In this document: positions 6,081-49,724 of the stretch, piece by piece
Layout of the letters: the number at the start of each line of letters is the position of its first letter
How positions within the stretch are numbered: position 1 is the stretch's first letter
Virus record (IMG/VR): IMGVR_UViG_3300011989_000257
Coordinates: 1-64,000 of that record
Strand: one strand, 5' to 3'
Source of the DNA: a virus
Lineage: Duplodnaviria > Caudoviricetes
Length of the DNA: 64,000 nucleotides
Made by a program: the position numbers and the translations under genes
Notes under the pieces: model-generated
Databases searched by the model: none
What the model saw: the letters and a program-made list of their open reading frames with translations, nothing else
Told to the model about the DNA's origin: nothing

Positions 6081-6494
6081 TTATGATTGCTCCATTTTTT
6101 GTTTATTCTTCATATATTCTCTTCTCCTTACCCTTGATGATTTACTTGGTTCTCTCTCTTCTTTTTCTGGGTTGAAATAGTTATTTTCTTTTGGTTCTTT
6201 TTCATTATCTGGATAATAATAATCAACATAACTACCCCAACCTTCATCTAATATTCTATTCACCGACTCCTTCACAATCCTATGAAGGTCACTCTCTGTT
6301 AATCTTATGATGGTTTGTTCTTCCACTTTTTCTAGAAGTCCTTTATGCTTTGTTTCTGCAAAATCCTTTACATCATCCATTGACATACCCTTTGCAGCTT
6401 TCTTTATCTTGCTGCTTGCATTCTTCATTTCACCTTTCTTGTATGCATCCACCATACCGAAGAATCTCTGTTGTGCTTTACTCTTACTTGGCAT
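6081..6494 (-). CDS. DUF3008-like protein with internal IRLTESDLHRIVKE tag
   Basis: MPSKSKAQQR...MSMDDVKDFAETKHKGL resembles DUF3008 as recalled. Confidence 0.6.
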   Translation of the reverse strand: MPSKSKAQQRFFGMVDAYKKGEMKNASSKIKKAAKGMSMDDVKDFAETKHKGLLEKVEEQTIIRLTESDLHRIVKESVNRILDEGWGSYVDYYYPDNEKEPKENNYFNPEKEEREPSKSSRVRRREYMKNKQKMEQS

Positions 6495-6535
6495 ATTAGT
6501 TGTCTATTTTTAATTTGTTATTTTCGTATTTGTAA

Positions 6536-7150
6536 TTATTTAAGTTTAACCCTTGCTAAAAAATCTTTCAAACAAGCATTCACATCATAATCTATATATC
6601 TTACTATTGAATATAAATCATCACAGTCCAAATTCTGCGTTTTCAAGAATTCAACGTCTTCATCATCATCATTTCCAAATGCCCTCTTTAGTTTCCTATT
6701 AAATGCATTTCCATATGTAGGTATATACCCTCTGAAATGTTTTCCATCCCAATATATGAAAAACAATATAGGGCACTCCCAATCACCGCCAGCGTAGCAT
6801 TTCAGATATGTTATACCCTTCCGTGTTTCCACTTTACCGATTGCACCAAGATTTTCGCAATCATAGTCTATCTTAGATATATCGTCTAGCAATGTTGACA
6901 ATTCTTTGGGCTTATCGTTTCTGTAATTGTTACAAAACCTATATACAAAGCTATCTAAGGAAAATTTTCTATCATCTTCTTTATTTCTTTCATAAATATC
7001 TTTAATTTTTTCCTCAAATTCTTTTGGTGAAATCTTTGCTGCTGTTCTACCGCCATTAGGAAGTTCAACATCTAGATTAACAACATACCTTTTTCTACCA
7101 CCCTCTATAATTAATCTCAGTTGGGATTCATTTAACATTATTCTTTTCAT
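6536..7150 (-). CDS. Hypothetical protein with N-terminal tag (MKRIMLNESQLRLIIE)
   Basis: ORF track; start moved to second Met at 7150. Confidence 0.7.
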   Translation of the reverse strand: MKRIMLNESQLRLIIEGGRKRYVVNLDVELPNGGRTAAKISPKEFEEKIKDIYERNKEDDRKFSLDSFVYRFCNNYRNDKPKELSTLLDDISKIDYDCENLGAIGKVETRKGITYLKCYAGGDWECPILFFIYWDGKHFRGYIPTYGNAFNRKLKRAFGNDDDEDVEFLKTQNLDCDDLYSIVRYIDYDVNACLKDFLARVKLK

Positions 7151-9110
7151 ACTTATAATTATTTTCAATTATCAGTTGTTCCATAAAACAGTTATATATC
7201 TTAAATGACTTGATATACCCTATAAAACTACCAGCAAACGCCTTCTCAAGAGGATATACCCTAGTAGGGTTCAGCATATAGTTAGGCTGTATCGTCTCTG
7301 CAAGACCTTGTGTGCCGCCTCCAAGTGATATATTGTAAGGAATACCCTCCTGTTTCTCATAAAGCTCGTTGAGAGCCTTTAAATCAAGTGACGGAAGCTC
7401 TCTAGTTATGTATACCAACTTGCCATTAACGTAGAACATAATCTTCATCTTATCCAATGTGAAACAAAGTCTAGCCATTACAGTAACCCATTCGCAATCT
7501 GGTATGACATTCTCGAATGAATACCCTTCGATAATGCTAGTCTTGTCCCTTCCTTCCTTCTCACAGTCTATTGTAAGCATCCTATATCCTATCTCGCCCT
7601 TGTCTGTGATTCTGAATCCAAGGGCGTTGTTGTAAAGGTCGTTATATGGGTTGTAGTTATTCGCTGATTGGTCACGTAATTCATCAATATTATTTACGGT
7701 ATAGCCAGTCTTTGTGCGGTTCATAAGAATGAATAGGTTTCCAGTGAATTGACTTTTTCTTCCATAGTACATCATCTGAGTACCTTCAATCCAATCCTTT
7801 ATGGTGTGCCCTTTCTTCGTCCTATCAAATATCATAAACTTGTTATCAGTATAGAAATAGTACTGATTCGCCTCGAACAATGAGAATCCGTTGTCAGTAT
7901 GATATTCAAAATCAGTTATATCTAATTCGGGTTCAATATACTGTACTGCCTCATTACGACTCATTATCTCATCTGTGTCCAATAAATAATCATCACCGAA
8001 TTCAGCATCAACTTTTAATGGATTTGGGTCATATTCTTCCTTTTTCTTTGGTATTTTTTTATACGTAATAGGGCATCCGCAACCATGAAACCAAGGTTTT
8101 AAATAATATTCATCTTCACTTGATTCCTCTCCACAGCACCACGTAAGCCTCTTGTATGGCAAGTCATTGTCACAAGGTATTATCTTTGGTTTTCTATCAG
8201 ATTCAATCTCAAGGTAGTCTGACATATCATCCCAGTCGCACTCATCCCTCTCCCACAAGTCAACATCATATAGTTTATAATCTGTATAATCACCAAGTTC
8301 GAATGGGTCGTATCCGTCAAAGTCTGGGTCTGGTGAATAAAAGTTTCCTATGATATAGTCTTTCTTATCTATTTCACCATCTTCTACGAAGTCATCAACA
8401 CCCAATTCAAAACACTTCTCAAGACCATCTACATCGTTTTTGTCATACTGATATATCCATTTATTTTCAGACCTTGTTCCTATATAGAAAAACAAACCCT
8501 TATTTTCTGGATACTTATCATTAAGTGTCTTAGTTGATTCAGGTTCGAAGTCACATTTCTTGAGAGTGAACTCGAAATATAAATCATCACCACTATTAAA
8601 CTTTGATGGCAATATCTGATATTTGTCGCATTCAGTTTTAAAAAATCCTTGGAAGAATCCACCATTAAGTTTTGTTTGGCATTCCTCGATATGTAAAGGG
8701 TATTCATATTGTAGCGTACTACCGCTTACAGCATGAAGTTTAAGCCTCTTATCATCTTCTAGTATTTCATAACTGTTTTCTTGAAATATCCTTATGAAAT
8801 CCTTATTGGTGATTCTATCTTTACGGAAAGTAAATAAACCGTTATCAACTCCAGTATACGTTATATTGTTAAGTGTATATGCACTTGCAAGAGCTTTATC
8901 CCAAGAGTATGAATTCTTACTATACAACCATTCTGCCATATCAGTACATTCCGAATCACAAAGGTCAATGTACGATATAAGGCAATCGTCATACAACCCA
9001 TCTAATTTAAATGAGCCGTATGAGTCCTTATTAACAAAGAAGTCCCAATATTCATCTTTATTAATTCTTAGTTTGAGATTATGATAGTTATTTACCTTTA
9101 AATTTGCCAT
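7128..9110 (-). CDS. Virion protein with C-terminal LamG/concanavalin-A-like domain
   Basis: W.TV...KIMFYVNGKLV...ISLGG...FIGYIKSFKIYN; late-type motif upstream. Confidence 0.55.
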   Translation of the reverse strand: MANLKVNNYHNLKLRINKDEYWDFFVNKDSYGSFKLDGLYDDCLISYIDLCDSECTDMAEWLYSKNSYSWDKALASAYTLNNITYTGVDNGLFTFRKDRITNKDFIRIFQENSYEILEDDKRLKLHAVSGSTLQYEYPLHIEECQTKLNGGFFQGFFKTECDKYQILPSKFNSGDDLYFEFTLKKCDFEPESTKTLNDKYPENKGLFFYIGTRSENKWIYQYDKNDVDGLEKCFELGVDDFVEDGEIDKKDYIIGNFYSPDPDFDGYDPFELGDYTDYKLYDVDLWERDECDWDDMSDYLEIESDRKPKIIPCDNDLPYKRLTWCCGEESSEDEYYLKPWFHGCGCPITYKKIPKKKEEYDPNPLKVDAEFGDDYLLDTDEIMSRNEAVQYIEPELDITDFEYHTDNGFSLFEANQYYFYTDNKFMIFDRTKKGHTIKDWIEGTQMMYYGRKSQFTGNLFILMNRTKTGYTVNNIDELRDQSANNYNPYNDLYNNALGFRITDKGEIGYRMLTIDCEKEGRDKTSIIEGYSFENVIPDCEWVTVMARLCFTLDKMKIMFYVNGKLVYITRELPSLDLKALNELYEKQEGIPYNISLGGGTQGLAETIQPNYMLNPTRVYPLEKAFAGSFIGYIKSFKIYNCFMEQLIIENNYKYEKNNVK

Positions 9111-9132
9111 TTACACATTATTATTTGTCTTA

Positions 9133-9146
9133 TATAAATATTTATT
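9133..9146. promoter_or_regulatory. Overlapping divergent putative late promoters (TATAAATATTTATT)
   Basis: TATTTATA on minus strand for the 9110 gene; TATTTATT on plus strand for the 9167 gene. Confidence 0.55.
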
Positions 9147-9166
9147 AAGAAATAAAAGCAATCTAT

Positions 9167-9415
9167 ATGAAGGTAATTAATTTAAACGAATCACAATACA
9201 ATAGATTATTTGAAAGCGTGACAGACCAAGACTTTGGTACTAGCACAATTCCAGAATACGATGGATTAGATAAAGTTGAGTTGCAGCCAACAATTACTGA
9301 TAAAAATGGTAGTCCAAAAAAGGCTAATCCAATAGATAGTGATAATTTTGCAGATATGCAGACACCACAGCAATGGGGTTCTGTAGGAGGCAGAAAATCA
9401 TCAAACACAATTTAA
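9167..9415 (+). CDS. Small protein with N-terminal tag (MKVINLNESQYNRLFE)
   Basis: ORF track; tag shared with other genes. Confidence 0.75.
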   Translation: MKVINLNESQYNRLFESVTDQDFGTSTIPEYDGLDKVELQPTITDKNGSPKKANPIDSDNFADMQTPQQWGSVGGRKSSNTI

Positions 9416-9417
9416 CA

Positions 9418-10818
9418 ATGGCATTATTTTTAGAGGATTCACAGAAGGTAACTAGAAGAAAAGCAGCGATTCCATTGAAGGATAGACAATACTATAGTGC
9501 ATGGTACAATGCGCTAGAAAAAGTCATGCCCAAAAACAAATTAAAGAACCTTAAAAGCCTTGCAACTACCAAAAACTATAATAAGAAAGGAAACAATAGT
9601 TTAAATGGAAAAGAACAAAATACAAGCTATGTTAGTGTAGAGGATGCAAAGAAGAGAATGCAGAGAATGAATCCAAATGACATAACGCAAGGTGGGCAGA
9701 AGGCTTATAACTTCTATAAAAAGACTGTTGAAAGGGCAAGAAGCCAAGCAGAGGTGTCTCCAATAGAACCTCCGAAGCCTACCGCAAGTGTTAAGCCTAG
9801 CAATGTCAATATAACCAAGCAAAGTGTGCCTACATCCAAAATAAAAACTGAGAATAGGATAATAAAAGAAGATATCGAATCTAATGTATTTTGGAATTAT
9901 TTAGAAGAATATAGCCCCACTTATGTGTTTAATAGTTTCCTTGAAAACCCAAAAGGAAAACAAAATTGGGGGGTACTGATAAATCCAGATATGTATGCAA
10001 AAGCGTTAAGGGAATTTACACAATACGGAAAATTGGTTAAATTTCCAAGTAAATATGTATATCAATGGATGGGTATCATTATGAAAAATACTGCAATTTT
10101 AATTTCAAATACAGAAATAGCTGGACACTCTAGTCATTTTCCATTTGAGGATTTCGAAGATTTCTTAATAAGCTACTATGGCGATAACAGAGAAATAGAA
10201 GTTAGTCTTAACCATAATGTTAGGATAGAACTTTCCGTCAAAGAAGTGTATGAAAAATGCAATAGTGCATTATATGAGGCTGTTGATAAATACGGACAAA
10301 TATATCTACCTTGGGTGACTCAAGATGATGCTGATAGAATGGCAGAAAGGCAAGACCAAGAAAGAATTTCAGCAAAATTCAGAGAAATATACGGTGACTT
10401 GGAAACGTTGATAAACAAGTTTAATGAAGAGTCAATACGTGAAACAATAGAAATTGATTATAAAAACAATAAATTCTATTATAATATAGACATGTTTGAA
10501 TTATTGTATCAAATTGGAATAACTGATGAATGGATGCAAATGCCTGATGGTAGTGATGCTTTTTCTGACTTTGGTATAGAACCATTGGAAGAGATTCTCG
10601 CAGAATATGATGAAAATTTACCTCCAGAAAAAGTACTCGTTTTGGTTAATAGAGCACTAGACGTGTACCACCAGAGAGGTGACATGGCATCAATATTCGT
10701 TCAAGGAGGTACTAAGGCTCTTTCTAGAATTGCTGAGGAAATTAAAAGAAATAGTAAAAAGATATATATAACTGAAAATCAATTAATAAGTCTGAACAAT
10801 GGCAAACACACCAAATAA
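9418..10818 (+). CDS. Hypothetical head-associated protein with C-terminal tag (KKIYITENQLISL)
   Basis: Start moved to MALFLED at 9418, just after the upstream stop. Confidence 0.75.
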   Translation: MALFLEDSQKVTRRKAAIPLKDRQYYSAWYNALEKVMPKNKLKNLKSLATTKNYNKKGNNSLNGKEQNTSYVSVEDAKKRMQRMNPNDITQGGQKAYNFYKKTVERARSQAEVSPIEPPKPTASVKPSNVNITKQSVPTSKIKTENRIIKEDIESNVFWNYLEEYSPTYVFNSFLENPKGKQNWGVLINPDMYAKALREFTQYGKLVKFPSKYVYQWMGIIMKNTAILISNTEIAGHSSHFPFEDFEDFLISYYGDNREIEVSLNHNVRIELSVKEVYEKCNSALYEAVDKYGQIYLPWVTQDDADRMAERQDQERISAKFREIYGDLETLINKFNEESIRETIEIDYKNNKFYYNIDMFELLYQIGITDEWMQMPDGSDAFSDFGIEPLEEILAEYDENLPPEKVLVLVNRALDVYHQRGDMASIFVQGGTKALSRIAEEIKRNSKKIYITENQLISLNNGKHTK

Positions 10819-11200
10819 TACACTTAACAAGGTTATGAATACCATCGAGAATATAATGGGTGGTAGAAAACCTCAACAGCCTTCTTCAAATGCTAGTATT
10901 GGAGGTAAACAAACTTGTCTTGAGAAATTTGGTATTGAGGCTAGAAAAGAGCACTTGTATAGAAACGAATGGAAAAATGATTTGCAATATACAAAGGCAT
11001 TGGTTGATTCTGAATATATGATTCAAAAAGAATTCCCAGTTGGAAGCACTGACCAAAGCGTTCAAGACCAAGTGGAAACTGCTAGGAAAAAAGAAGAGAA
11101 AGCCAATAAAAGTAAATTGGAGAAACTAAGAGAAAAAAGAGATAAATTAAATACAAAAATAGAAACTTTAGAGGGAAAATCTAAGATTGAAGAACTATAA
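10799..11200 (+). CDS. Hypothetical protein, partial paralog of 11258..11680
   Basis: Shares MANT and QTCLEK.G.E.R...R.......QY. Confidence 0.7.
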   Translation: MANTPNNTLNKVMNTIENIMGGRKPQQPSSNASIGGKQTCLEKFGIEARKEHLYRNEWKNDLQYTKALVDSEYMIQKEFPVGSTDQSVQDQVETARKKEEKANKSKLEKLREKRDKLNTKIETLEGKSKIEEL

Positions 11201-11222
11201 TATTTATAATTAACTATTTATA
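11201..11222 (+). promoter_or_regulatory. Tandem putative late promoters TATTTATA (11201, 11215)
   Basis: Two exact copies in the intergenic gap before 11258. Confidence 0.55.
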
Positions 11223-11257
11223 TTAGAAAATAAATTACTTAAATTTTATATAAGAAT

Positions 11258-11680
11258 ATGGCGAACACAGTTCAAAATGGACAAACTTGTCTCGAAAAGA
11301 GAGGCATGGAAGAGAGACATCAAGAGATTACTCGCTCAGATTATAATATTGAAAATCAATATGGACCAACTCATCCAGATGCATTAAGTGATGGTGATGC
11401 TCAAGGTAAGGGTACTGGACATGGTGGACATACTCACTTCTTACCAGATTGTACAAAACCAACAACTCAGATTAACTACAGTAATTTCGATACTGAAAAT
11501 GGTGGAGGATATTACGATATCAAAGGCAGAAATGGAATAAGTGGCCGTGAGAGAGCATTGGCTATATCAATGTATAATAAGGAAGTTCCTTATGGCGCTA
11601 ATCTAGTTGACACAACACAGAATGTAAACGATGGACAGTATTTTGTAGGTCAGCAGATTGGACAAAAGACTACTACCTAA
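11258..11680 (+). CDS. Hypothetical virion protein
   Basis: ORF track; G/H-rich centre. Confidence 0.75.
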   Translation: MANTVQNGQTCLEKRGMEERHQEITRSDYNIENQYGPTHPDALSDGDAQGKGTGHGGHTHFLPDCTKPTTQINYSNFDTENGGGYYDIKGRNGISGRERALAISMYNKEVPYGANLVDTTQNVNDGQYFVGQQIGQKTTT

Positions 11681-11702
11681 TATATTTAAACCAAAATAAA
11701 TT

Positions 11703-12050
11703 ATGATGAATAGAAGTTATGATAGTGATAGATTACATAAACTTGCCAAAAACATCTTAATTGGTATGGAACTTGTTGATAAACGAGTTGATTCTATCAA
11801 GAAAACAAGTGTAAAGAAGGAATTAAACGAAGAGGAAACAAGACAAGCAATTGCTGAAACGAATGCATTTTTTGCTGATAGGAAGATGCAAAGAAAATTG
11901 GAGGCATTGAAGTCATTAATTGTCGATAATACATATCAGAACCAGCTTAATGAGATGGCTAAAGGACAGAATATGAGTATCACACCTCAAAGTCGTTTCA
12001 ATGAAATGAATATGAGGGTTGATTTTAACCCATACGATGAAAAAGATTAA
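11703..12050 (+). CDS. Hypothetical protein
   Basis: ORF track; operon-like spacing. Confidence 0.7.
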   Translation: MMNRSYDSDRLHKLAKNILIGMELVDKRVDSIKKTSVKKELNEEETRQAIAETNAFFADRKMQRKLEALKSLIVDNTYQNQLNEMAKGQNMSITPQSRFNEMNMRVDFNPYDEKD

Positions 12051-12052
12051 TA

Positions 12053-12781
12053 ATGGGAATAATAAAAAACTACCTTTTAAACGAGAACATTGATTTTAAC
12101 TCTGTTCTTGATGCAATTCAAAACAAATATCAAGTCCGTATCAGATATGATGACGGACAAGGAAATAGTGCTGGAAATCCAAAAGGTAGTCGTGTAATAA
12201 AGCCTTTTGCAATTGGTACAACAAAGAAAGGATATCCAGTTGTAAGAGCGTTCCAAGAAGGTGGTGGTAGTAGACGAGGAACACCAAAATGGAAATTCTT
12301 CAGACTTGACAGGATTACATCTTGGACTCCAATGAAAAATAAGAAATTCTTTGAAGCACCTCCAAGTGAATTTGGTGAGTATAATCTTACTGGAGATAAG
12401 ACAATGGGTACATTCTATGATAATGCAAAATTGGATGACTTCATAAGTCCGTTGGACAAACAAAGAATGCAATTTAAAAATGATGTTAAACTTGGTAGGC
12501 AGAATAATACAAAAAATGGTCCTGTACAACAACCAAGAATAACACAGCAAAGGAAGAATAATGTATACACGTCTCAGCCTAACAGTAAGAAATATGATAT
12601 GATAAGGAAGAACATAGAAAACACGCCAAAGAAGGATGATGATTTTTGGAAATTGTTTGACCTTAACGATGCTGAAAAAACTTTAACACAACCACAAAAA
12701 GGACCAATTCAAAACAATGGTTACGATACTAATGAAGTCGATTTTAACGAAAACGACTACTTAAACAAAAACAAAAGATAA
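12053..12781 (+). CDS. WYL-domain protein (no HTH) with low-complexity tail
   Basis: AIQNKYQVRIRY...RVIKPFAIG...VRAF...WKFFRLDRI. Confidence 0.7.
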   Translation: MGIIKNYLLNENIDFNSVLDAIQNKYQVRIRYDDGQGNSAGNPKGSRVIKPFAIGTTKKGYPVVRAFQEGGGSRRGTPKWKFFRLDRITSWTPMKNKKFFEAPPSEFGEYNLTGDKTMGTFYDNAKLDDFISPLDKQRMQFKNDVKLGRQNNTKNGPVQQPRITQQRKNNVYTSQPNSKKYDMIRKNIENTPKKDDDFWKLFDLNDAEKTLTQPQKGPIQNNGYDTNEVDFNENDYLNKNKR

Positions 12782-13467
12782 TGGCAAATTTGACTGAAGA
12801 GCAAAAGAAGGCTAGATTAAGTGATTCTATGTCTAGGGCAGCAAAACTAATGAAATTAGAAGCAAATGGTACTATCGACAAAATCGCAAAGGGACATAAA
12901 GATGGCATCAATGAATCGCTTAATGGCGGTACACTAACAAGTGATTTAATGACAACTTCTAGAAATAGAAATACCCAAGCACCGCCTTCATTTGGTGGGC
13001 AAATGGGCGAAAATGCTGCAAACGTACCAGCTGCAATCAGAGAAGCATTCATGAACAACCCAATAGATGAGACTGAATTGTATTCAGTATTTGGCGGTGG
13101 TGACGGTCGTGATGTATCATTCCTTACAGAAGCGCTTGACATTGCACCACAACCAGCATATACGCCGCCTCAGAACGTTAGACAAATTGTCAATGAGGGG
13201 ATGCAGCAACAGCAACAATATACTCCTCAATACCAGTCAGCACCTCAAATCGACTATCCAATGATTAGAACAATCGTTGAGGAAATTGTAAGAAAATATG
13301 CAACATCATTGAATAAGAGAATTGTTAATGAAGGAAAGGGGAGCGAAATCAATACAATCGCATTGGGTAAGAATTTCAGATTCTTGGCTTCAGATGGTAC
13401 AATATATGAATGCAGTATGAAAAAAGTGGGAAATGTAAATGATAGAAGAAAGAGTGTTAACGGCTAA
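12781..13467 (+). CDS. Hypothetical protein (Q/P-rich)
   Basis: ORF track; start overlaps the upstream stop. Confidence 0.75.
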   Translation: MANLTEEQKKARLSDSMSRAAKLMKLEANGTIDKIAKGHKDGINESLNGGTLTSDLMTTSRNRNTQAPPSFGGQMGENAANVPAAIREAFMNNPIDETELYSVFGGGDGRDVSFLTEALDIAPQPAYTPPQNVRQIVNEGMQQQQQYTPQYQSAPQIDYPMIRTIVEEIVRKYATSLNKRIVNEGKGSEINTIALGKNFRFLASDGTIYECSMKKVGNVNDRRKSVNG

Positions 13468-13480
13468 CACTCTTTTTTTT
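13449..13480 (+). terminator. Intrinsic terminator
   Basis: AAGAGTGTTA-acggc-TAACACTCTT followed by a T-run. Confidence 0.8.
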
Positions 13481-13553
13481 ATTTTCTCTTGAAAAACAAA
13501 TTATGGAAAATTATTTTTTATAAAAGAATAATTTATTATAAAAATAACTAGTT

Positions 13554-14771
13554 ATGAGTAAAAAGATTAAAATGTTAGTAATACCATCCGATAGGACAGG
13601 CGTAGGTAAATTTCGTTCAGTAGCTCCTCACACATACATTCAAGAACATTATGGTGATGAATTTGACGTAGATATCGTGTACAGCATGCCTAAAGGAGAC
13701 CTTGAAGCATTCCTAAAGCAATACGACCTCATACATATTCACAAACAGCTTGATAAAGAGTGCAAGATTATGGATATGATTAAATTCTTGGGTATTCCAG
13801 TAATTATTGATATTGATGACCACTTCTTGCTTGGTGATGACCACCCAATGTCAATTACTGCAAAAAAAGAAAGGTGGCATGAACCAATCATCAATCACTT
13901 AAAAAAGGCTGATTACGTCACAACTACTACACCAATATTCGCAAATGTTCTAAAGAAATACAACAAGAATGTTGCCGTATTTCCAAATGCTATTGACCCA
14001 AAGGAGGAACAGTTTAATATTCCTAAGACTCCAGAAACCGACAGACTGCGTGTTGGAATCATTTGTGGTTCATCGCATTTAAAAGACCTTCAGTTGATTG
14101 ATGGTATTGCAAAACAAATTGATAAAGATAAGGTGCAATTTGTCCTATGTGGATTTGATACAAGAGGAACAAGAACAATCTATAACCAACAAACTGGTGA
14201 AAAAACCACACGACCAATCCTACCTGAGGAGAGCGTATGGTGTGATTATGAGAAGATATTTACTGATAATTATAAGAACGTATCCAAAGAACATCTTGAC
14301 TTCTTAAAGAAATACATCGCTGGAACTGATGACCCATTCACTAATGAATCTTATAGAAGAATGTGGACTAGGGACATTAATAAGTATGCCACACATTATG
14401 CCAATGTGGATGTACTTATAGCTCCGTTGAAGGAGAACGAGTTCAACAAGGTTAAGTCACAACTGAAGGAGACTGAGTGTGGATTCACACACACTGCATT
14501 CATCGGCCAGAATTTCGGTGCTTACACCATTGACCTTGTGCCTATGATTGAGAAAGGTGGTAAGATTAACGAAGAAGGGACAGCATTACTAGTGGATTCA
14601 AGGAAGAACCACAAAGAATGGGCTAAGTATATTAATAAATTGGCAAATAATCGAGACATGCTACATAAGTTGCAAGACAATCTTGCAAAGTTCGTACAAG
14701 AGAATTATTCGCTTGAAAAAGTTTGTAAGGATAGAGTTGAATTATATAAGAAACTTGTGGGAGTTGATTAA
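13554..14771 (+). CDS. Glycosyltransferase, GT-B fold (GT4-like)
   Basis: GVGKFR..P, DIDD, ADYVTTTT, FPNAID, GSSH..DL, DVLIAPL.ENEFN..KS.LK. Confidence 0.8.
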   Translation: MSKKIKMLVIPSDRTGVGKFRSVAPHTYIQEHYGDEFDVDIVYSMPKGDLEAFLKQYDLIHIHKQLDKECKIMDMIKFLGIPVIIDIDDHFLLGDDHPMSITAKKERWHEPIINHLKKADYVTTTTPIFANVLKKYNKNVAVFPNAIDPKEEQFNIPKTPETDRLRVGIICGSSHLKDLQLIDGIAKQIDKDKVQFVLCGFDTRGTRTIYNQQTGEKTTRPILPEESVWCDYEKIFTDNYKNVSKEHLDFLKKYIAGTDDPFTNESYRRMWTRDINKYATHYANVDVLIAPLKENEFNKVKSQLKETECGFTHTAFIGQNFGAYTIDLVPMIEKGGKINEEGTALLVDSRKNHKEWAKYINKLANNRDMLHKLQDNLAKFVQENYSLEKVCKDRVELYKKLVGVD

Positions 14772-14774
14772 CAT

Positions 14775-14805
14775 AAAAAGGAGGTAGACTTTTCTACCTC
14801 CTTTT
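14775..14805. terminator. Bidirectional intrinsic terminator
   Basis: AAAAGGAGGTAGA-cttt-TCTACCTCCTTTT between convergent genes. Confidence 0.85.
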
Positions 14806-15346
14806 AAGCTTTAAACTCACTAGCATCAACTGGTGAACATTGTATTGTTCTGTATAGCGGAACTGTCCCCCATAATGAATGTGCATTATCATAATTATTT
14901 TTTCCGTCATTATTGACCACCCAATACTCGCAATGGCTTGGAGACACATATATTCCAATATAATCCCCTTTCTTTATTTCTGCACCTAGTTCATCAAGTG
15001 TTTCTTGATACACTCCAAGGGTAAGTTTACCAGTTTTCATATAAGTCCCAAGTTGTTTAGACTTATCATATGACTTAAGTTCTGGCTCCTCAATCTCATA
15101 CACACATGGTATTTCGATTGGCGTTTTAAATGCTACTTCATCTGCTGATGTTTCCCCATATACAGCATCAGTTTGTGTTTGTGAGGCATCAACTTGATAA
15201 AGTATGACAGTTTGCCCCATATCTTGTTCTATGTAGTTTTTACCTATTTCTCTTTCAATTGCAAATGTTTGTGCATCATAGAAAAGACTATTCCTATTGA
15301 TAGGGACACGTCTTACATTATTTGTGTTAAATTTTAAATTAGCCAT
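14804..15346 (-). CDS. Putative neck/head-closure protein (T4 gp14-like)
   Basis: G..V.LY.V.....D..YGE....F..P.E...KGDYI pattern resembling gp14. Confidence 0.5.
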   Translation of the reverse strand: MANLKFNTNNVRRVPINRNSLFYDAQTFAIEREIGKNYIEQDMGQTVILYQVDASQTQTDAVYGETSADEVAFKTPIEIPCVYEIEEPELKSYDKSKQLGTYMKTGKLTLGVYQETLDELGAEIKKGDYIGIYVSPSHCEYWVVNNDGKNNYDNAHSLWGTVPLYRTIQCSPVDASEFKA

Positions 15347-16085
15347 GATAATATGTCTCCCAATTTTCCAAATTCATTCCTGCGTCAAGAACCACAATCA
15401 TTGGATTACCGTCCCTATTAACCATTCCGTAATTCTCTGGTTTAGTTAAATCGCCAATTTGTGTGTCCATTATTAATTTCTTAAGATTCTTCAGCCAAGG
15501 ATTCTTCATTATATACGATTCAATTTCTCTATTATAATATCCCTCGCCAATTGTATAGTTTGTTTCCAAATAGCATACTATCTCATATACACTAAAATCT
15601 GCTTTGTCTGCAACATTTTTTAGCTTGCCAAAATATTTAACATAATCAGAATAACTTTGTTGATAATGCTTATCATAGAATGGTAAACCAATAATTTTTT
15701 CAAAATCTATAGGCTGTGCTGGAACTACATTCTCACAAATTATATATGAGTAATTATCATCATTGCCAAATATCTTGACCAATAATGGTGAACGATTCTC
15801 ATCATATAATTGGCACTCAAGACGATTCTGTGCCTTTCCAGCCTCATATCTACCATTGGCTAATTTCAAAACAAGGTTATCGCTTAACATGAATATGCAT
15901 CTAGAAGTTCCTTGTGCAACTGGTTCTCCCAACCATTTTCTACAGTATTCGAATTGACGTTTGCTAGTATTTTCGTCAGAAAAGGCATCATTCCCCAATA
16001 TTGACAACTCATCAAATGAAAATCCTTCCCTATATGCCTCAAATAATCTTTTATGCTGTGATTCGTTTATCTTAATTAATTTCAT
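15339..16085 (-). CDS. Protein-kinase-like fold protein with N-terminal tag
   Basis: AQGTSR (Gly loop), VLK, NRLE, ICE (hinge), GDLTKPENYG (catalytic loop), VLDAG. Confidence 0.65.
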   Translation of the reverse strand: MKLIKINESQHKRLFEAYREGFSFDELSILGNDAFSDENTSKRQFEYCRKWLGEPVAQGTSRCIFMLSDNLVLKLANGRYEAGKAQNRLECQLYDENRSPLLVKIFGNDDNYSYIICENVVPAQPIDFEKIIGLPFYDKHYQQSYSDYVKYFGKLKNVADKADFSVYEIVCYLETNYTIGEGYYNREIESYIMKNPWLKNLKKLIMDTQIGDLTKPENYGMVNRDGNPMIVVLDAGMNLENWETYYHG

Positions 16086-16124
16086 GAATTATATATTTAT
16101 TTTTAACAATAAATAGTTGATTAT

Positions 16125-17006
16125 ATGATAAAAGAAACATTTAATTTTGCCAATAACGGTGATGAATTTTATACTAGATTAAATGATATATCTAAGGAAA
16201 TACCCAATTACAATTGGGCTAATATGATTATATATTGTAATTGTGATGACCCAATGAAGTCAAATTTTTATAAGTATTTCAAAAGCAACTTTAAAAATCT
16301 TGGCATTAAAAAGTTATTTGCAACATATAAATCAAATAATCCATTATTATTTGAATTTGATGGAATAAACGAAAAGAAAATGCCAATTTCATCTGGAGAT
16401 TTTCAAGTTAATACAGACATACTCAATATGTGTGATGCCATTGTTACCAATCCACCATATTCTAGTGGCATGGCAGTAGAATTTATTGATATGATGCTAG
16501 GTAGTGGGAAGAAATTCTTAATTGTTGCACCTCTGAATATAATTACGAAAAAGAAAATATTCGAATATGTAAATGATGGGTTACTTCGTATAGGTTATAC
16601 ATCCATAAACTCATTTGGCAGAGAGGATGGCTCAGTATCAAACTCTCCAAGCTGTTGGTGGACTAACTTTGACGTTGAGAAACCATTTATAAATACATCT
16701 TTTAATTATGACGAAAATGTATATCCAAAATACGATAATTATGATGCCATTGATTGTAGTAGGACAGATATGATACCTAATGGTTATAGCGGAATTATGG
16801 GTGTTCCAGTTCGTTTTATAACAAAGTATAACCCAAAACAATTCACGTTGATTGGTATACTTAATCACCCAAGGATAAATGGAAAAAACATTATGTCTAG
16901 AATCCTTATTCAAAGGAATAATGTACATGAAGGGACTAAGAAAGTGAGGATAACAGAAAGCAGTTATAAAAGGATATTTAAAATAAAAAATGGTTCATAC
17001 GTATGA
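16125..17006 (+). CDS. EcoRI-family adenine-specific DNA methyltransferase with C-terminal tag
   Basis: DEFYT, IYCNCDDP, GDF, IVTNPPY, YPKYDNYDAI, GIMGVP, KYNP.QF, RILIQ; extra tail KKVRITESSYKRIF. Confidence 0.85.
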   Translation: MIKETFNFANNGDEFYTRLNDISKEIPNYNWANMIIYCNCDDPMKSNFYKYFKSNFKNLGIKKLFATYKSNNPLLFEFDGINEKKMPISSGDFQVNTDILNMCDAIVTNPPYSSGMAVEFIDMMLGSGKKFLIVAPLNIITKKKIFEYVNDGLLRIGYTSINSFGREDGSVSNSPSCWWTNFDVEKPFINTSFNYDENVYPKYDNYDAIDCSRTDMIPNGYSGIMGVPVRFITKYNPKQFTLIGILNHPRINGKNIMSRILIQRNNVHEGTKKVRITESSYKRIFKIKNGSYV

Positions 17007-17033
17007 ACCATTTTTTATTAATTTAGAGACCGA

Positions 17034-18056
17034 TTATTCTGCTGATGCTAGTGCATATATCAATTCATCATGTACAGCAATTTTTTTATTTTTTTCGTTT
17101 TTTAATTCATATTCCTCTTTAGTTATAAATTCTTCTTCACTTTTTTTAAGTGAAAAAGCCTTTACTTCTTCTTTGTTAATATAAGCATTCCATGCTCTTG
17201 CAAACATATGGTACATTTCTTTATCAGAAATTTTCTTTTTACCCTCCTTTCTATCACGTAAATATGAACGTAACGTGGTTGTTGGTTTTCCTGCTGTGCG
17301 AGTTGCATATTCGTCAACCAATTCCTCAAAAAAAGGATAAACCTCTTCGAAAGACCATCCACAAACCATATTTAAATAAGCCATTACACATCCGTAGAAT
17401 TTACCATTCGACATAAAATTTTCCTTGCCTTTTCCTTTGCACAAATTCATAGCCTTTAATGCAGCAGTAGTATATGAATTCAAATGTTCACTAGCATCCT
17501 CAAGGCATTCATCATTGTTTGATGTTGTTCTTGTCATACAACCACCATGACTACCTTTTCTACCATTTTTCCACTCCATAACCTTTTTAACAATAGAAGC
17601 AGTGTATGATTGATGTGTTGGACTAGTTTCCCCCATAATCTGTGAAGCAGATAAAGTATCACCGAATGTTCTTGTTTTACCCATGTCAATAGTAGAGAAA
17701 GCACCTTCTGGTACACCTTTTACAACTAGTGCTAACATGGGTACTCCGCTTTCAGCAACAGCAGTTAATCTACCTTGCCCATCCAAAAGTTTATCCGTAT
17801 CACTAAATATGATAGTTTGTCCATTAAACTGCCATACGTCATCAATTAATTGCCTAATGTAAGAGTTCCTTCTCCCATTGTCTAGTTTTCTGTTCATAAC
17901 ATTCTTCTTTAACCATTCTTTGGCCATTTCAGACGTTATTACAACAATCTCACATGTAACTTGTGCATTCATTTTTTCATGAAGCGCATTCAAAGTTTCT
18001 AACTTACTAGTGATAAATTCTTCACTTGCTCTAGCACCATTATTTCTTGTTGCCAT
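17034..18056 (-). CDS. ParB/Srx-like (DGQHR-type) domain protein
   Basis: IT.E.A..WL..N..NR...W.FNG..I.F....LLDGQGRL.A...V..G......D.G..R; His of DGQHR replaced by Gly. Confidence 0.7.
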   Translation of the reverse strand: MATRNNGARASEEFITSKLETLNALHEKMNAQVTCEIVVITSEMAKEWLKKNVMNRKLDNGRRNSYIRQLIDDVWQFNGQTIIFSDTDKLLDGQGRLTAVAESGVPMLALVVKGVPEGAFSTIDMGKTRTFGDTLSASQIMGETSPTHQSYTASIVKKVMEWKNGRKGSHGGCMTRTTSNNDECLEDASEHLNSYTTAALKAMNLCKGKGKENFMSNGKFYGCVMAYLNMVCGWSFEEVYPFFEELVDEYATRTAGKPTTTLRSYLRDRKEGKKKISDKEMYHMFARAWNAYINKEEVKAFSLKKSEEEFITKEEYELKNEKNKKIAVHDELIYALASAE

Positions 18057-38398: not shown

Positions 38399-39190
38399 TT
38401 ACTCTGTTTTTTCGCCTTTAAAAATGAATTTATCTTTATCACGTTTAACACTTGGGTGAAACAAATATTCACGTTTTGCCAAATCAAACCACCACTGTGA
38501 TTCCTCACCACTTACAGTTTCCTTATAGATATTTACAAGAGAACCCTTTCTATCAAGGGTATGGTTATATCCAACCTTTGGAATGACGAATACTTTTTTA
38601 CCTTTATTTGTTAGACGAAGAAGCCACTCATACCAGAATGTAACTTTGATTGAAGGCTTTAACCCACCAACTTCTTGCCAATCCTTAATGTTGAATACCG
38701 AACCAGTTAGATAGAAATCAAAATAATTTCGCAAACAATCATGGTCAATATAACCAATCTCATTGGAAAAAGATGAAGCCCAAGCAGCCTCATTTCCGAA
38801 ACCTATATACTTTCCATTATTAAAGTCTGTAATATCCTCAAGAGTCATAAATACACTTGTATCTGGCATAAATTCCACATACTTCTTTACGTTCGGCAAC
38901 CAAATTGGTGTATACGTATCATCAAACTCAAGGATTGAGAACCACTTGAAATCATTTGCTACTGCATCTACAGCAGCATTTACAAGGTCAGCAAACGTTG
39001 TACCATCACCCTCTGAGATAATACGTAGTACACTGCTTGGAATGTTCTTAATCTTAGCCTCTGAAGTACCATTTGGTACTGAAAGACAAACTGTAACTCC
39101 CTCTGGAACACTTTTAATTGCCTTATTAGCAAGTTCTATATTTTCCTTACCAAATTCATGCATTGGTATTATCACTACTAGTTCCTTCAT
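38399..39190 (-). CDS. Glycosyltransferase family 2-like (GT-A)
   Basis: VVIIP, AIKSV, ILEFDD.Y.P.W, W.EVGG, EWLLRL...G..V..IP..GY.H. Confidence 0.7.
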   Translation of the reverse strand: MKELVVIIPMHEFGKENIELANKAIKSVPEGVTVCLSVPNGTSEAKIKNIPSSVLRIISEGDGTTFADLVNAAVDAVANDFKWFSILEFDDTYTPIWLPNVKKYVEFMPDTSVFMTLEDITDFNNGKYIGFGNEAAWASSFSNEIGYIDHDCLRNYFDFYLTGSVFNIKDWQEVGGLKPSIKVTFWYEWLLRLTNKGKKVFVIPKVGYNHTLDRKGSLVNIYKETVSGEESQWWFDLAKREYLFHPSVKRDKDKFIFKGEKTE

Positions 39191-39794
39191 TCTTTAACTC
39201 TTCTTTTTTCTTATTAATTATTTCATAAAGTTTATCTGTATATTTCTTCTTGATAACTTCATCATCCTCGTCTGGATTCTTAAACTTTTCTATAATCATT
39301 TCACTAACGTAATATACAGCCTCTGCTTCAAGGTCAACATTCGCATATTTCCTATGCCAAGGATAATTAGGGTCATCATGCGTAAGAGGATTTAACTTGT
39401 CTGCCAACTCGATAAAATCATTAGAATTAAAAATCTTACAATATTTTATAAATTTTTGGAAATCAAACTCATTTGGTTCTAAACAGCTAAGTACCTTCCT
39501 TGTCAAAGGAAATCCTACAGTTTCAAAAGAACCATCTTTCTTAAATAATCTATCTGTCTGGTCATCCTCACAAAAGATTAAAAAGATTGCAAGTTGTTCA
39601 TATGCATATGCCAATTCTTCCTTACGTTCTTCTGGAAATCCTTCAGTAAATCCCAATTGCGCCCATCTATCAGCAATTTGCTTTATTTTCTCATCAAGTT
39701 TACCACTTTTCTTTGCTTGAGCGTAAGTATGAATGCATATTCCCTTATCTGGATGTATATTCCCCACGCAACCACTTTCTAAAAATTCCTTCAT
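39156..39794 (-). CDS. Protein resembling the N-terminal region of a gp23-type major capsid protein
   Basis: FLESG.VGNI...RW..LGF.EG...E.LA..YE..A..L...GSFETV.FP..RKV.S; similarity is from recall, not a search. Confidence 0.5.
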   Translation of the reverse strand: MKEFLESGCVGNIHPDKGICIHTYAQAKKSGKLDEKIKQIADRWAQLGFTEGFPEERKEELAYAYEQLAIFLIFCEDDQTDRLFKKDGSFETVGFPLTRKVLSCLEPNEFDFQKFIKYCKIFNSNDFIELADKLNPLTHDDPNYPWHRKYANVDLEAEAVYYVSEMIIEKFKNPDEDDEVIKKKYTDKLYEIINKKKEELKNEGTSSDNTNA

Positions 39795-43827: not shown

Positions 43828-43829
43828 CA

Positions 43830-46051: not shown

Positions 46052-46266
46052 AAAATGGGAAGACTTTTTTTGTCCTCCCATTCTTTTTATATGTATTCAA
46101 CAATTTCAATAAACGCCTTATGTTCTTCCTTTTCTTTATCTTCCCACCAATTTATAACATCTTGCGGTGGTTCAAAGTTGAAAACCATTGGGTCACGTCT
46201 AAGAGGTTCCCAGACTTCTTTCTTTATGTGTACAATCTTCATACCCAATTAAATCTATTAATGCCA

Positions 46267-47457
46267 TTATTCTTCAGAATCTTCTTCAGTGAATTGTACA
46301 TCATTTTCTGTAATGTCAAGTTTCTTACCACTTGTCTCTTCAATCTTTGCAAGAATATCCTTCATGTAGGTTTTCTTGTATTCCTCTAGTGCCTTTGGAT
46401 TCAATAGACCATTATGCACACAAGACATTTCACCTTCGTATGTTACGTTCCAAGGTGTTGGCAATTGATTCTTTGTTGTCCTAATCTTAGTTGTGATGCC
46501 ATACTGATATTTGCTACCTTTTGCAGTTGCATCTAGCTTTTTTGTAGCAGCCTTACCGATACCTCCAAGATGAATAATCAATCTTGCGCCATAGAAGAAC
46601 GTCTTACCTCCCTTAAGCTCAATTGAAGGAACACCACCCATTGAATTCATTGAGTCATTCCAAATCTTATTAACACAGAAAAATGTATTAGTATATTCCT
46701 CACTAACCTTCTTTGAAGATGGAATTCTATTATTGATAATATTACTGAATGACTGAGAAATAGCACCTGCATCAAACATGTTATTACCACTCTTGCTCTC
46801 AAGTGACTTAAATGACTGAATAGAACCGATTGAGTCCCAAATAAAGCACATTGGTTGTTGAATTTCGCCTCTGTCTTGAGCATCTAGCAAGTCATTAATT
46901 GAATATGCAATATCCTCAAGAACTGCTTCCTTACGCTTAGTCTTTGACTCCTTACCAGTTGAGTAGTCACGATTACCGTACATTTCAGCAAGAATCTTAT
47001 TATCAAAATATAAGAACTCACCGTCATAGTTGATAATTCTTTTCTCAGTATGAGTTGTAATCTCTCCAGTTTCCTCATCAACATCCTCAACCTCTACGTC
47101 ATCGTAAATAGGGGTCGCTTTCATTCCACAATCAATTGCATATTGGAAATCGAAGTTATTTTCAGTCTCATATATAACTGGAAGTATTCCATTATTGATA
47201 CATGACGCAATAAGACAATTCTTAATGGTTGATTTACCAGTGTTTGACCATCCAGTTACGATTGTAAGATAACCCTTTGGAATACCTGGAAGTTTAATTG
47301 CATCTGCAAATGCCTCTGGAAGTGGAATAAAGTCTGTTGGTTTATCTGCAACAGACTTTACCAAATCCTTATTTGATTTCATTGTTAATCCATATTTTTC
47401 CTTAAAACTAGCTATACTAGGCTTTTTAAACTCTTTTTTCTTAATTGGTTGCTTCAT
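46267..47457 (-). CDS. recA: RecA/UvsX-like recombinase
   Basis: GIPKG..T...GWSNTGKS (Walker A), YETE, WDSIG (Walker B), KGG..F, K..T.KN. Confidence 0.85.
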   Translation of the reverse strand: MKQPIKKKEFKKPSIASFKEKYGLTMKSNKDLVKSVADKPTDFIPLPEAFADAIKLPGIPKGYLTIVTGWSNTGKSTIKNCLIASCINNGILPVIYETENNFDFQYAIDCGMKATPIYDDVEVEDVDEETGEITTHTEKRIINYDGEFLYFDNKILAEMYGNRDYSTGKESKTKRKEAVLEDIAYSINDLLDAQDRGEIQQPMCFIWDSIGSIQSFKSLESKSGNNMFDAGAISQSFSNIINNRIPSSKKVSEEYTNTFFCVNKIWNDSMNSMGGVPSIELKGGKTFFYGARLIIHLGGIGKAATKKLDATAKGSKYQYGITTKIRTTKNQLPTPWNVTYEGEMSCVHNGLLNPKALEEYKKTYMKDILAKIEETSGKKLDITENDVQFTEEDSEE

Positions 47458-47470
47458 AACTTAATCTATC

Positions 47471-47683
47471 TTATAAAATATTATTTCTCGGAACTGCATA
47501 AAGTTTTCCTTCATCATGGTTATTGATAATTATTGAACTAAAGATGTTATCCATATCGTTATCATCAACGACTATTCCATTTATGATTCTGAAATTATTT
47601 GGTTTGAAAAATTCATCCCTCCAGTTATCATACCATTTGAATTTAACTCTTTCTCCTTTTCTATAACAGCGTGTTAGTCTCAT
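47471..47683 (-). CDS. Hypothetical protein
   Basis: ORF track. Confidence 0.6.
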   Translation of the reverse strand: MRLTRCYRKGERVKFKWYDNWRDEFFKPNNFRIINGIVVDDNDMDNIFSSIIINNHDEGKLYAVPRNNIL

Positions 47684-47684
47684 T

Positions 47685-48302
47685 TTATTTTTCCTTTAAA
47701 AGTTTGTCTCTAACTTTGTCTTTCCAACATTTTCTGCAAATAGCTCTGTACTTATCATTACCACCAATCATTACTTGGTCACCCTCAGTGACAATTTCAC
47801 CATTTTCATCGAATCTAGCATTGATTGATGTTTTTCTGTCTCCGCACTCACAAGTTGACTTAATCTCTTCTATATCATCTGCAAGTTCAAAAAGACGTTT
47901 AGACCCTGGAAATAATTTAGATTTAAAATCTGTTCTCAAACCAAAGCACATCACATTAATATCTAGAAAGTCAACAACATCAGATAATTGGTCTACTTGT
48001 TCTTCCGTAAGGAATTGACATTCATCTATTATAACCCACTTAAGAGTTTCTAACTGTGCGTCTAAGACATTCTTGTATGCCTTTATAGCTTTATATAGAT
48101 TAATTTCTTTATCAATCATAATACATTTACGTTCAAGTCCAGCACGTGAATGAATAATTCCTTCTCCATCCCTAGTATCCAACGATGGCTTAAGTACCAT
48201 TATTTGTACGCCTTTCTCCTCAAAATTGTAAGCTGTACTCAATAGCCTCAGTGTCTTTGCTGAGGCCATTGACCCGTAATAAAATTTTAAATGCTTTGCC
48301 AT
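47685..48302 (-). CDS. tdk: Thymidine kinase
   Basis: YGSMASAKT, DTR, SRAG, IDECQFL, FGLRTDF, FPGS..L, C.CG, Y.A.CR.C. Confidence 0.95.
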   Translation of the reverse strand: MAKHLKFYYGSMASAKTLRLLSTAYNFEEKGVQIMVLKPSLDTRDGEGIIHSRAGLERKCIMIDKEINLYKAIKAYKNVLDAQLETLKWVIIDECQFLTEEQVDQLSDVVDFLDINVMCFGLRTDFKSKLFPGSKRLFELADDIEEIKSTCECGDRKTSINARFDENGEIVTEGDQVMIGGNDKYRAICRKCWKDKVRDKLLKEK

Positions 48303-48324
48303 ATTGATTTATAAACATTGCCTA

Positions 48325-49326
48325 TTAGAACGGTAAGTCATCCTCATCGTCATCATCTTTGACATCATTACCATCAATTATATTTACACCACTAGATTCT
48401 GCTATGTCAGAGAAATCTTTTGTTGGCTCTGTAAGGGATTCTTCAATCCTTTGTTTCTCAGCCTCTTCCTTCACCTTGACAAGTTCTTCCTTATCAATAT
48501 ACCTGTTTTCTTCCTTGCTAAATACTGGAACTCCACCCATAGCAATGATGCTCATATACTCATATGATTTAACCGTATATACCTCATCCCATTGCTTGCT
48601 ATCATGAATCCATTTTTCACCAAGTTCAAAATCATCTGAAAGCGCTGATGGAACACCAGCATCAATAATCTGAATTGCGGTTTTATTATCTGAGGTTCTT
48701 GAAAGAGTTACAATCAAATCCAAGCCATTATTAAGGTCGAAGATACTATAGGTATTTCCCTTCTTTGCTGCCGCTTCTGAACGAATCTTTGCCAAATTCA
48801 TAATCTTGTCATATACGCCATCCTTCTTCTTGGAAGAATTGAAAAGCCAAAATTTAACACCATCTTCTTCATGGTCACGCTCGATGCAGCGAACAATCCA
48901 CATCTCCTTAACACGATTAAGGAACTCCACATCTCCATACTTCTTCTTTGTGGGTTCATCAAGTGACTTTGACTTAAGTTCACGTGCCTTTGCAGATGTC
49001 TCGCAAAATGGACACTTATCACCCATTACAGAGCCATCTTTCTTGTTGTGCGTAGGGCACACAAAAGTCTTCCACCCACTAGGTGAAACCTCTTTATTAA
49101 CCTTTACGGTATGCATGAAAACTTTCTTGAAAGGACTACCACCTTCTGGGGAGAATGGCAACAGTCTAATTGTAAGTGTTTTTGAATCTTCGTTTGACGT
49201 AAGTCTAGCTTGTAAATAATTTTTTGTGTCAAACTGAGTCTTCTTAACAGGTTGTTTCTGTTCTTGTTCATACTGATTTCTTACTGCGTCATCATCAATG
49301 TTAACGCTAAAATTCTTGTTACTCAT
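48325..49326 (-). CDS. Single-stranded DNA-binding protein (T4 gp32-like)
   Basis: IRLLP, F.H, CP...CPFC, FD...G, acidic C-terminus DDDDEDDLPF. Confidence 0.8.
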   Translation of the reverse strand: MSNKNFSVNIDDDAVRNQYEQEQKQPVKKTQFDTKNYLQARLTSNEDSKTLTIRLLPFSPEGGSPFKKVFMHTVKVNKEVSPSGWKTFVCPTHNKKDGSVMGDKCPFCETSAKARELKSKSLDEPTKKKYGDVEFLNRVKEMWIVRCIERDHEEDGVKFWLFNSSKKKDGVYDKIMNLAKIRSEAAAKKGNTYSIFDLNNGLDLIVTLSRTSDNKTAIQIIDAGVPSALSDDFELGEKWIHDSKQWDEVYTVKSYEYMSIIAMGGVPVFSKEENRYIDKEELVKVKEEAEKQRIEESLTEPTKDFSDIAESSGVNIIDGNDVKDDDDEDDLPF

Positions 49327-49388
49327 AATTTAAATTGTTTTAAAAATATTATTGATGCACACCTGAATATGTGCTTAAAAATTTATAT

Positions 49389-49422
49389 TGCAAAGATATA
49401 GAAAAAAAATGTAAAATCCAAA
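49389..49422 (-). promoter_or_regulatory. Bacteroidota sigmaA-type promoter driving SSB-tdk-recA
   Basis: TTTGG-N19-TATCTTTGCA; terminator hairpin just upstream (49425-49460). Confidence 0.8.
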
Positions 49423-49466
49423 TAAATTCCTAGTTATTTTCCTGTATTTAACTAGGAATTTATTAC

Positions 49467-49724
49467 CTAAATTTCTGTTAAGCCACCATCAATAGTTTCC
49501 AATTCATCATTGGCAGCATTAAGATATTGCCCTATTTTGGTAACATGTGGATTAGGCTCTTGTCCTAATCTAGAACACATTGTCATATGGTCTCTGATTA
49601 CTTGTAATGCATCAGACAAACTTATCTTCAATTCATATTTCAAATTGTCCAAATCATCATTGCCATATCCTATCTCATTGAGAAGCTTGTTGTATGCCTC
49701 TTCATTTAATTTAACTGTTTTCAT
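49467..49724 (-). CDS. Small protein with N-terminal tag (MKTVKLNEEAYNKLLNE)
   Basis: ORF track. Confidence 0.7.
   Translation of the reverse strand: MKTVKLNEEAYNKLLNEIGYGNDDLDNLKYELKISLSDALQVIRDHMTMCSRLGQEPNPHVTKIGQYLNAANDELETIDGGLTEI

Follow-up and report, generated by a model that had tools for sequence, protein, structure and literature searches.

The internal proteins IPI, IPII, IPIII and Alt of phage T4 carry a capsid-targeting sequence (CTS; Mullaney and Black 1996, as reviewed in PMC9026906, PMC3012670, PMC5694885). Such propeptides of 10-19 residues target the core, are removed by the protease gp21, and constitute the sole common part of otherwise diverse internal proteins, and Alt and gp21 undergo C-terminal processing too (PMC9026906, PMC5694885, PMC3012670). 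In the giant phages phiKZ, 201phi2-1 and SPN3US, propeptides of head and ejection proteins are cut by gp21-like proteases, and the SPN3US paralogs gp53 and gp54 have an identical 15-residue N-terminus that was likened to the CTS by the authors (PMC5694885, PMC10052503). The present study concerns a short peptide tag that recurs on unrelated proteins of an uncultured rumen phage known from a single 412,514-bp virus record (IMG/VR IMGVR_UViG_3300011989_000257; 34.5% G+C), the first 64 kb of which are referred to here as the window. The tag is real, is selected as a peptide, has been added to unrelated proteins, is biased towards late-type transcription units, and occurs alongside a T4-type head module. 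By analogy, I lean slightly towards reading it as a portable address for the capsid interior, similar to the T4 CTS but longer and far more widely used, and it is best classed under the T4 capsid-targeting principle.

Encapsulins likewise use a short portable peptide, at either terminus, that sends unrelated enzymes inside an HK97-fold shell, but as bacterial compartments they involve neither DNA nor a protease step nor injection, and their peptide sequences are unrelated to the tag. Phage P1 sets a precedent for the loading of enzymes, as the anti-restriction proteins of its Dar system, including the methylase/helicase DarB, are loaded in the head and injected with the DNA; there, however, loading proceeds by ordered protein-protein incorporation (Hdf, DarA) and not through one common peptide tag. 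With T4 the likeness is as follows: short leaders are common to unrelated, fast-evolving small proteins, both kinds of leader start with MK, have a few hydrophobic positions and terminate in [L/I]-x-E, the phage likewise encodes a protease of the gp21 type and a capsid protein of the gp23 type, and the C-terminal propeptides of Alt and gp21 find a counterpart in C-terminal tags. The tag differs in its length of 16-26 residues compared to 10-19 in T4, in having about 20 or more carriers per genome as opposed to about four, in standing also at C-termini and between modules, in having a DNA methylase and a kinase-like enzyme among its cargos, and in being carried by IS1595 elements into host chromosomes; moreover, function was shown by experiment in T4, where I infer it here. 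With phiKZ, 201phi2-1 and SPN3US, which are not close relatives of this phage, the likeness lies in many head-internal proteins being cut after Glu by a T4-like protease, but their cleavage motif is A/S/G-x-E, their propeptides mostly exceed 100 residues, and where N-termini are shared, it is paralogs that share them and not dozens of unrelated proteins.

A hidden Markov model (HMM) of the motif recovered 23 carrier proteins with 24 copies genome-wide at E<=5e-5, with the next match at E=0.013, and had no matches in 20 shuffled proteomes. A regular expression for the motif core matched 22 times in the proteins of the genome, whereas 200 shuffled proteomes gave 0.19 matches on average (maximum 2), and a chance origin of the motif is excluded. 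Scanning N-termini revealed two further leaders of the short form beyond the window, one at 212775 and one at 394695. Internal matches in a ClpB-like ATPase, in the tail sheath and in the large 92626 protein failed a leave-one-out test and were dropped. All seven copies that an earlier note on this DNA had listed explicitly translate as it had described and lie where it had placed them (Table 1). The tail ending at 10818 and the leader at 49724 were not significant on their own by leave-one-out, and both are conserved in orthologs. The weaker versions that the note had reported in SprT and WYL proteins gave no HMM match even at E<10.

Table 1. Coordinates of tag copies, promoter-like boxes and transposable elements with tagged genes (E, leave-one-out value).
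Feature	Position	Strand	Details
Short-form N-terminal tag MKRIMLNESQLRLIIE	7103-7150	-	204-aa protein 6536-7150; E 2e-3
Short-form N-terminal tag MKVINLNESQYNRLFE	9167-9214	+	82-aa protein 9167-9415; E 3.4e-7
Short-form N-terminal tag MKLIKINESQHKRLFE	16038-16085	-	kinase-like protein 15339-16085; E 2e-4
Short-form N-terminal tag MKTVKLNEEAYNKLLNE	49674-49724	-	85-aa protein 49467-49724; E 0.86
C-terminal tag KKIYITENQLISLNNGKHTK	10756-10815	+	protein 9418-10818; E 1.3
C-terminal tag KKVRITESSYKRIFKIKNGSYV	16938-17003	+	EcoRI-type adenine methylase 16125-17006; E 4e-4
Internal long-form tag EQTIIRLTESDLHRIVKESVNRILDE	6243-6320	-	DUF3008 protein 6081-6494, residues 59-84; E 2.6e-10
Back-to-back ATATTTAT late-type boxes ATAAATATTTAT	9134-9145	both	head units 9110->6081(-) and 9167->(+), four tagged genes together
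Divergent pair of probable promoters	16093-16116	both	39-bp gap of kinase-like/methylase genes; ATATTTAT(+) 16093-16100, CTATTTAT(-) 16109-16116
ATATTTAT box	50867-50874	-	heads unit 50847->49467, last gene is tagged 49467-49724
IS1595-type elements with tagged passengers	L179:2722-5516; L178, L161, L166 and nine other bacterial loci; viral contigs L060, L046, L013		

The tag occurs in a long form of 26 residues (MKKIIRLTESDLHxIVKESVxRILxE) and a short form of 16-17 residues (MKxIx[LI]NESQxxRLFE), of which the latter predominates in the window, where the internal DUF3008 copy is the only long one. Most copies are N-terminal, and the others are located at C-termini (the methylase and the 9418-10818 protein) or between modules (the DUF3008 protein and multi-tag proteins). 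The tag is proposed to open with a short stretch in extended conformation, [K/R]-x-I-x-L-[T/N]-E, and to continue as a helix with [I/L/V]-x-E at its end. Among 82 distinct long tags from related contigs, conservation ended right after the closing Glu, which was present in 76, with a Leu two residues earlier in 77 and a variable residue following, and the inner L-T-E was invariant; short-form copies end in L-F-E, I-I-E or L-N-E. These endings fit [L/I]-x-E, the motif at which the T4 prohead protease cuts. A 'NESK' stretch that frequently precedes internal tags was not counted as a site, as it does not fit the [L/I]-x-E pattern. Sec, Tat and lipoprotein signals were ruled out on reading the sequence, the tag being charged and without a hydrophobic core. 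No Pfam or PHROGs family covers the tag in 20 carriers, a PDB profile search with the tag matched designed helical repeat proteins only, and a literature search for the motif string found no paper; the tag is undescribed in the protein families and literature searched, and very widespread.

When the carriers were compared outside the tag, only one pair was similar. The tag codons varied synonymously among copies, with Ser encoded by AGT, AGC, TCA, TCC, TCT or TCG and Leu and Thr codons varying too, switches between AGY and TCN included, so that it is the peptide that is conserved; judged from its codons, selection on the tag acts at the level of the peptide. The portability that the earlier note had claimed is well supported by the dissimilarity of the cargos, by lineage-specific addition of the tag, by swaps of leaders, and by the 47 cargo clusters described below. 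In the methylase (PF13651, E 4.8e-54), a C-terminal tail of ~22 added residues ending in I-[S/T]-E-S-S-Y-x-R-I-F-K was confined to the closest orthologs (P0080-P0102, on contigs up to 403 kb), whereas most homologs lack it and terminate in ...NGK..SRILIQ, and more distant ones in ...NGK..R.IIK. Orthologs of the 9418-10818 protein end in KK[VI]YITE[KE]Q[LI].[KR]L, except for two without the tail and one with a long-form-like tail. Ten orthologs of the 49467-49724 protein keep MKT[VI].L-x-E[ED][SA]Y..L[IL]NE, in which L-x-E is fixed and x is free (N/T/S/K/R), and the leader of 6536-7150 is identical in three orthologs.

The leader of the kinase-like protein was kept in nearly all full-length homologs down to 38% identity and is the best-conserved part of the protein. 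In an AlphaFold2 model its residues 1-20 had a predicted local distance difference test (pLDDT) value of 40-58, compared to near 90 for the body, which showed weak matches to protein-kinase-like folds (APH, MTR kinase, choline kinase; template modelling score about 0.3). For the methylase, pLDDT fell from 96 to 79, 72, 69 and 43 across the final 33 residues, in which a short helix spans 278-284. The models thus place the tag outside the folds of both proteins, with low confidence despite its conservation.

Exchange of sequence around the tag was apparent in several families. In protein 6081-6494 the tag links a DUF3008 domain (residues 4-56) to a variable tail; eleven orthologs keep domain and tag, but the sequence after the L-x-E of the tag is wholly different, and one of these post-tag cargos was found elsewhere directly behind an N-terminal tag. 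The protein encoded just behind the protease gene has a long leader in this phage and the 17-residue MKKIRLREEALRKLIRE in a relative, with the same cargo (starting GVYPDGQ) and the same junction, and the long and short forms are thus interchangeable. I propose that the tag-coding sequence is also a joint for the exchange of cargos among genes, phages and IS1595 elements.

Some proteins (152316-154115 in this genome; P0204, P0237 and others in public data) carry two to four tags between unrelated modules, in the order tag-cargo-tag-cargo. The Met of the MNKK start is kept in 29 of 62 internal copies, which suggests that multi-tag proteins arose by fusion of adjacent tagged genes. Some of the multi-tag proteins in the public protein library could be artefacts, produced where gene calling read through from one gene into the next. 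Nevertheless, related contigs translated with table 11 have open frames of 100-477 codons upstream of tags, and the open reading frame (ORF) 152316-154115, on the minus strand, holds two tags, so that genuine multi-tag examples exist.

The genome encodes a Peptidase_S77 prohead protease of the T4 gp21 type at 79306-80067 (PF03420, 90.7 bits, at 79516-79977), which also matched the head maturation protease family phrog_207 (E 2.6e-42). Its orthologs have an invariant L-I-E close to the N-terminus, and an L-I-E near the N-terminus has likewise been described for T4 gp21 (PMC9026906). A Gp23-type major capsid protein is encoded at 75574-77604 (PF07068, 215 bits), and its orthologs keep [I/L]-x-E, with variable x, directly before AT at residue 59. 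A large terminase and a sheath-like protein are encoded as well, and a very acidic 497-aa protein at 77676-79169 (-), between the capsid and protease genes, is a scaffold candidate. Strong tag copies adjoin the protease, scaffold-candidate and capsid genes (at 80072, 80511, 81424, 87827 and 96072). Five other genomes of 273-401 kb have 8-19 tags each, all five with the protease and at least three with tag copies within a few kb of its gene.

Three side observations concern this head module. The N-terminus of the scaffold candidate, MSKNIRSKVVRESLL, resembles MANFVKSKLARESVE, the common N-terminus of the SPN3US head proteins gp53/gp54 quoted in PMC5694885, although the likeness is short. In two related genomes the protease domain lies inside an ORF of 600-609 aa with a second, weak and partial match to the family (G002:C1:265878-267536 and G005:C1:111833-113368), which may be a duplicated or fused protease. 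Within the window, 39156-39794 (-) encodes a 212-aa paralog of the first ~90 residues of the capsid protein (propeptide and N-arm; 43% identity, E 3e-17), which could be a second, different route for addressing the prohead, or a decoy.

The 8-mer ATATTTAT was found 8-70 nt upstream of 61 of the 634 ORFs genome-wide; for the capsid, scaffold-candidate, sheath, probable portal and fibre-like genes the distance is 20-50 nt. The box probably serves this phage group as its late promoter, the label 'late' being based on the genes that it precedes. Units headed by ATATTTAT contain 17 of 20 tagged genes compared to 137 of 518 others (odds ratio 15.8, p 1.5e-7). All seven carriers in the window belong to ATATTTAT-type units if a box with one mismatch upstream of the kinase-like gene is counted: ATATTTAT lies 29 nt upstream of 9167-9415, 6536-7150 is the second gene of the unit beginning at 9134-9141(-), and 49467-49724 is the third gene of the unit beginning at 50867-50874(-). 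The earlier note had held that its reading would fail if the motif were equally common in early or non-virion genes; instead, tagged genes are biased to late-type units.

The long tag occurs 261 times in IMG/VR. In 79 inspected loci, 96 long-tag copies were found, about nine in ten of them 5-8 residues after Met. The 79 distinct cargos from related contigs, which are small and often acidic, fell into 47 BLAST clusters, and no Pfam or PHROGs family was found for the 47 representatives. A profile search of 1.84 billion representatives yielded 1,059 tagged clusters at E<=1e-10 and 6,820 at E<=1e-3, the looser count perhaps including helical repeats that are unrelated; many of the top matches were tag-cargo-tag-cargo strings. 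A megablast search of window positions 6000-17100 against GenBank phages gave no match.

Thirty loci with the tag came from bacterial assemblies, mostly metagenome-assembled genomes of rumen Prevotella, and three of these were from cultured isolates (Segatella bryantii DSM 11371, Prevotella sp. tf2-5 and Prevotella sp. MA2016). An IS1595-family transposase (PF12762 + PF12760) and the tagged gene are arranged tail to tail in 12 of the 30, and remnants of the transposase were seen in others. Element L179 holds its tagged gene inside terminal inverted repeats of ~14 bp. Two compared IS1595 elements were alike (about 90% identity) only in the transposase region, in a block of 43 bp at one end and in the 92 bp that code for the tag. 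On the S. bryantii DSM 11371 chromosome (L166:3940-4258), a solitary 87-aa tagged gene has kept a GATATTTAT box of the phage type, and its 5' leader nearly matches the one of phage gene 87827-88087; the tagged gene is flanked by glycoside hydrolase and lipoprotein genes, with a transposase remnant downstream. The IS1595 passengers and the S. bryantii copy provide a link to the host and show that the piece coding for the tag serves as a swap joint as well.

If the tag is a capsid address, it would dock cargo onto the assembling prohead core late in infection, the T4 gp21-type prohead protease would cut after the conserved Glu residues, and the freed cargo would remain in the head and then enter the next cell with the DNA. 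I infer this docking, cleavage, packaging and injection of tagged cargo from several lines of evidence: the presence of T4-type head machinery; the exact end of conservation at [L/I]-x-E, and the retention of L-x-E while x drifts in the 49467-49724 orthologs; the bias of tagged genes to ATATTTAT-headed units; the strong copies adjoining the protease gene here and in at least three relatives; carriers that are unrelated outside the tag, with clade-specific tails and swapping leaders; selection on the peptide; the modelled position of the tag outside enzyme folds; and the precedent of the T4 CTS. Loading into the capsid fits every indirect test that was run. A single co-folding run with the 497-aa scaffold candidate, the 234-aa protease and a 32-residue tag scored 0.00 and carries no weight either way.

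Several observations weigh against loading into the capsid. Tag and protease co-occur within one clade, so that their association is not independent evidence, and the lateness of ATATTTAT is read from the genes downstream of it. Both C-terminal tags hold the inner I-[S/T]-E only and are without the closing [L/I]-x-E. The amphipathicity of the helix is moderate (hydrophobic moment about 0.4) and not above that of shuffled sequences, for which reason the tag is not called a strongly amphipathic helix. The cargos are often acidic, with a pI (isoelectric point) below 5 in 47% of cargo cluster representatives compared to 23% of all proteins, whereas T4 internal proteins are basic. The tag is also longer and more conserved than the T4 leaders and has no sequence similarity to them, and is therefore regarded as an analogue and not a homologue; a tblastn search with a 30-residue tag, a short query of low power, found no match at E<=5 in 50,697 GenBank phage records, T4 included. 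Finally, tagged genes ride IS1595 elements in chromosomes of cultured Prevotella and Segatella, away from any capsid genes, although the IS1595 link by itself is neither for nor against capsid loading.

The absence of the closing [L/I]-x-E from the C-terminal copies would suit an uncleaved element for docking or assembly at another late hub. Such a hub might be part of the tail or baseplate, a chaperone, or a site at a membrane or in a compartment, or the carriers might co-assemble with one another. A binding element would also agree with the partial helicity and with N-terminal, C-terminal and internal positions, and the bias to late units would suit any late structure. On the other hand, conservation ending exactly at [L/I]-x-E and the retention of L-x-E with x free speak against an uncleaved element, and cutting of the tags would more readily explain strings of tag-cargo-tag-cargo. 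The neighbours of strong copies are the protease, scaffold-candidate and capsid genes and not tail genes, and no recognised tail protein has a significant copy, as the match in the sheath did not survive leave-one-out. Docking to another hub is considered rather unlikely.

The tag could alternatively be read as mainly a recombination joint, a cassette boundary at which phages and IS1595 elements swap small genes and whose peptide has no addressing role. The two IS1595 elements whose passenger regions differ except for the 92-bp tag piece, the break of homology among DUF3008 orthologs exactly at the end of the tag, the occurrence of the same cargo behind different tag contexts, and the S. bryantii chromosomal copy that retains phage promoter, 5' leader and tag would all be expected of such a joint. 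Yet the copies in the genome differ at many synonymous sites while the peptide is fixed, the opposite of what a joint at the DNA level would give, and the leader of the kinase-like family is its most conserved part even at 38% identity. A role purely as a joint is distinctly improbable; acting as a joint is compatible with a function of the peptide and probably secondary to it. Slightly more improbable still is that the tag is a signal for degradation or timing or has some other regulatory role, with an AAA+ protease or unfoldase of host or phage (for example the ClpB-like ATPase 101753-104263) as its reader. Short terminal peptides at either end are typical of degrons and the phage does encode a Clp-type ATPase, but nothing explains why one degron would be common to more than 20 late proteins that cluster next to head genes, and a length of 26 residues, fixed [L/I]-x-E ends and internal copies between modules are unlike known degrons. 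The tag-like stretch in the ClpB-like protein is itself internal and failed leave-one-out, and resembles a segment conserved in ClpB proteins.

A bolder version of the capsid reading would make the tag a position-independent, general label for the capsid interior throughout one clade of huge phages of the rumen, where thousands of cargo families and polyproteins would bear it, and one that is exploited also by IS1595, such that host or transposon proteins could be loaded into the heads of infecting phages, either as Trojan-horse sabotage or to travel with the phage. I consider this improbable.

Two side observations concern other genes of this phage. The window encodes a 2,149-aa protein at 51944-58393 (-) with a phage tail lysozyme domain at residues 1639-1794 (PF18013), which is probably a tape-measure or ejection-type protein. 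Outside the window, tail-fibre-like genes at 132912, 140630, 141614 and 231447 share another common N-terminus, MA[IV]YL[KR].F..., probably a common baseplate-anchor module and a different kind of shared N-terminal address.

The tagged genes on chromosomal IS1595 elements link the phage group directly to Prevotella/Segatella as hosts and exemplify how genes pass between huge phages and the bacteria that they infect. If the tag is indeed a capsid address, the T4 loading principle would have been scaled up and freed from position in this group, operating from the N-terminus, the C-terminus or between modules, and a second, longer natural tag for packaging foreign proteins in phage heads would be at hand. 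Sequence alone would then suffice, through the tag, to pick out the arsenal of proteins that a large and uncultured group of phages of rumen and gut injects, and at least a thousand clusters, nearly all of unknown function, would become candidates for first-minute host takeover and anti-defence.

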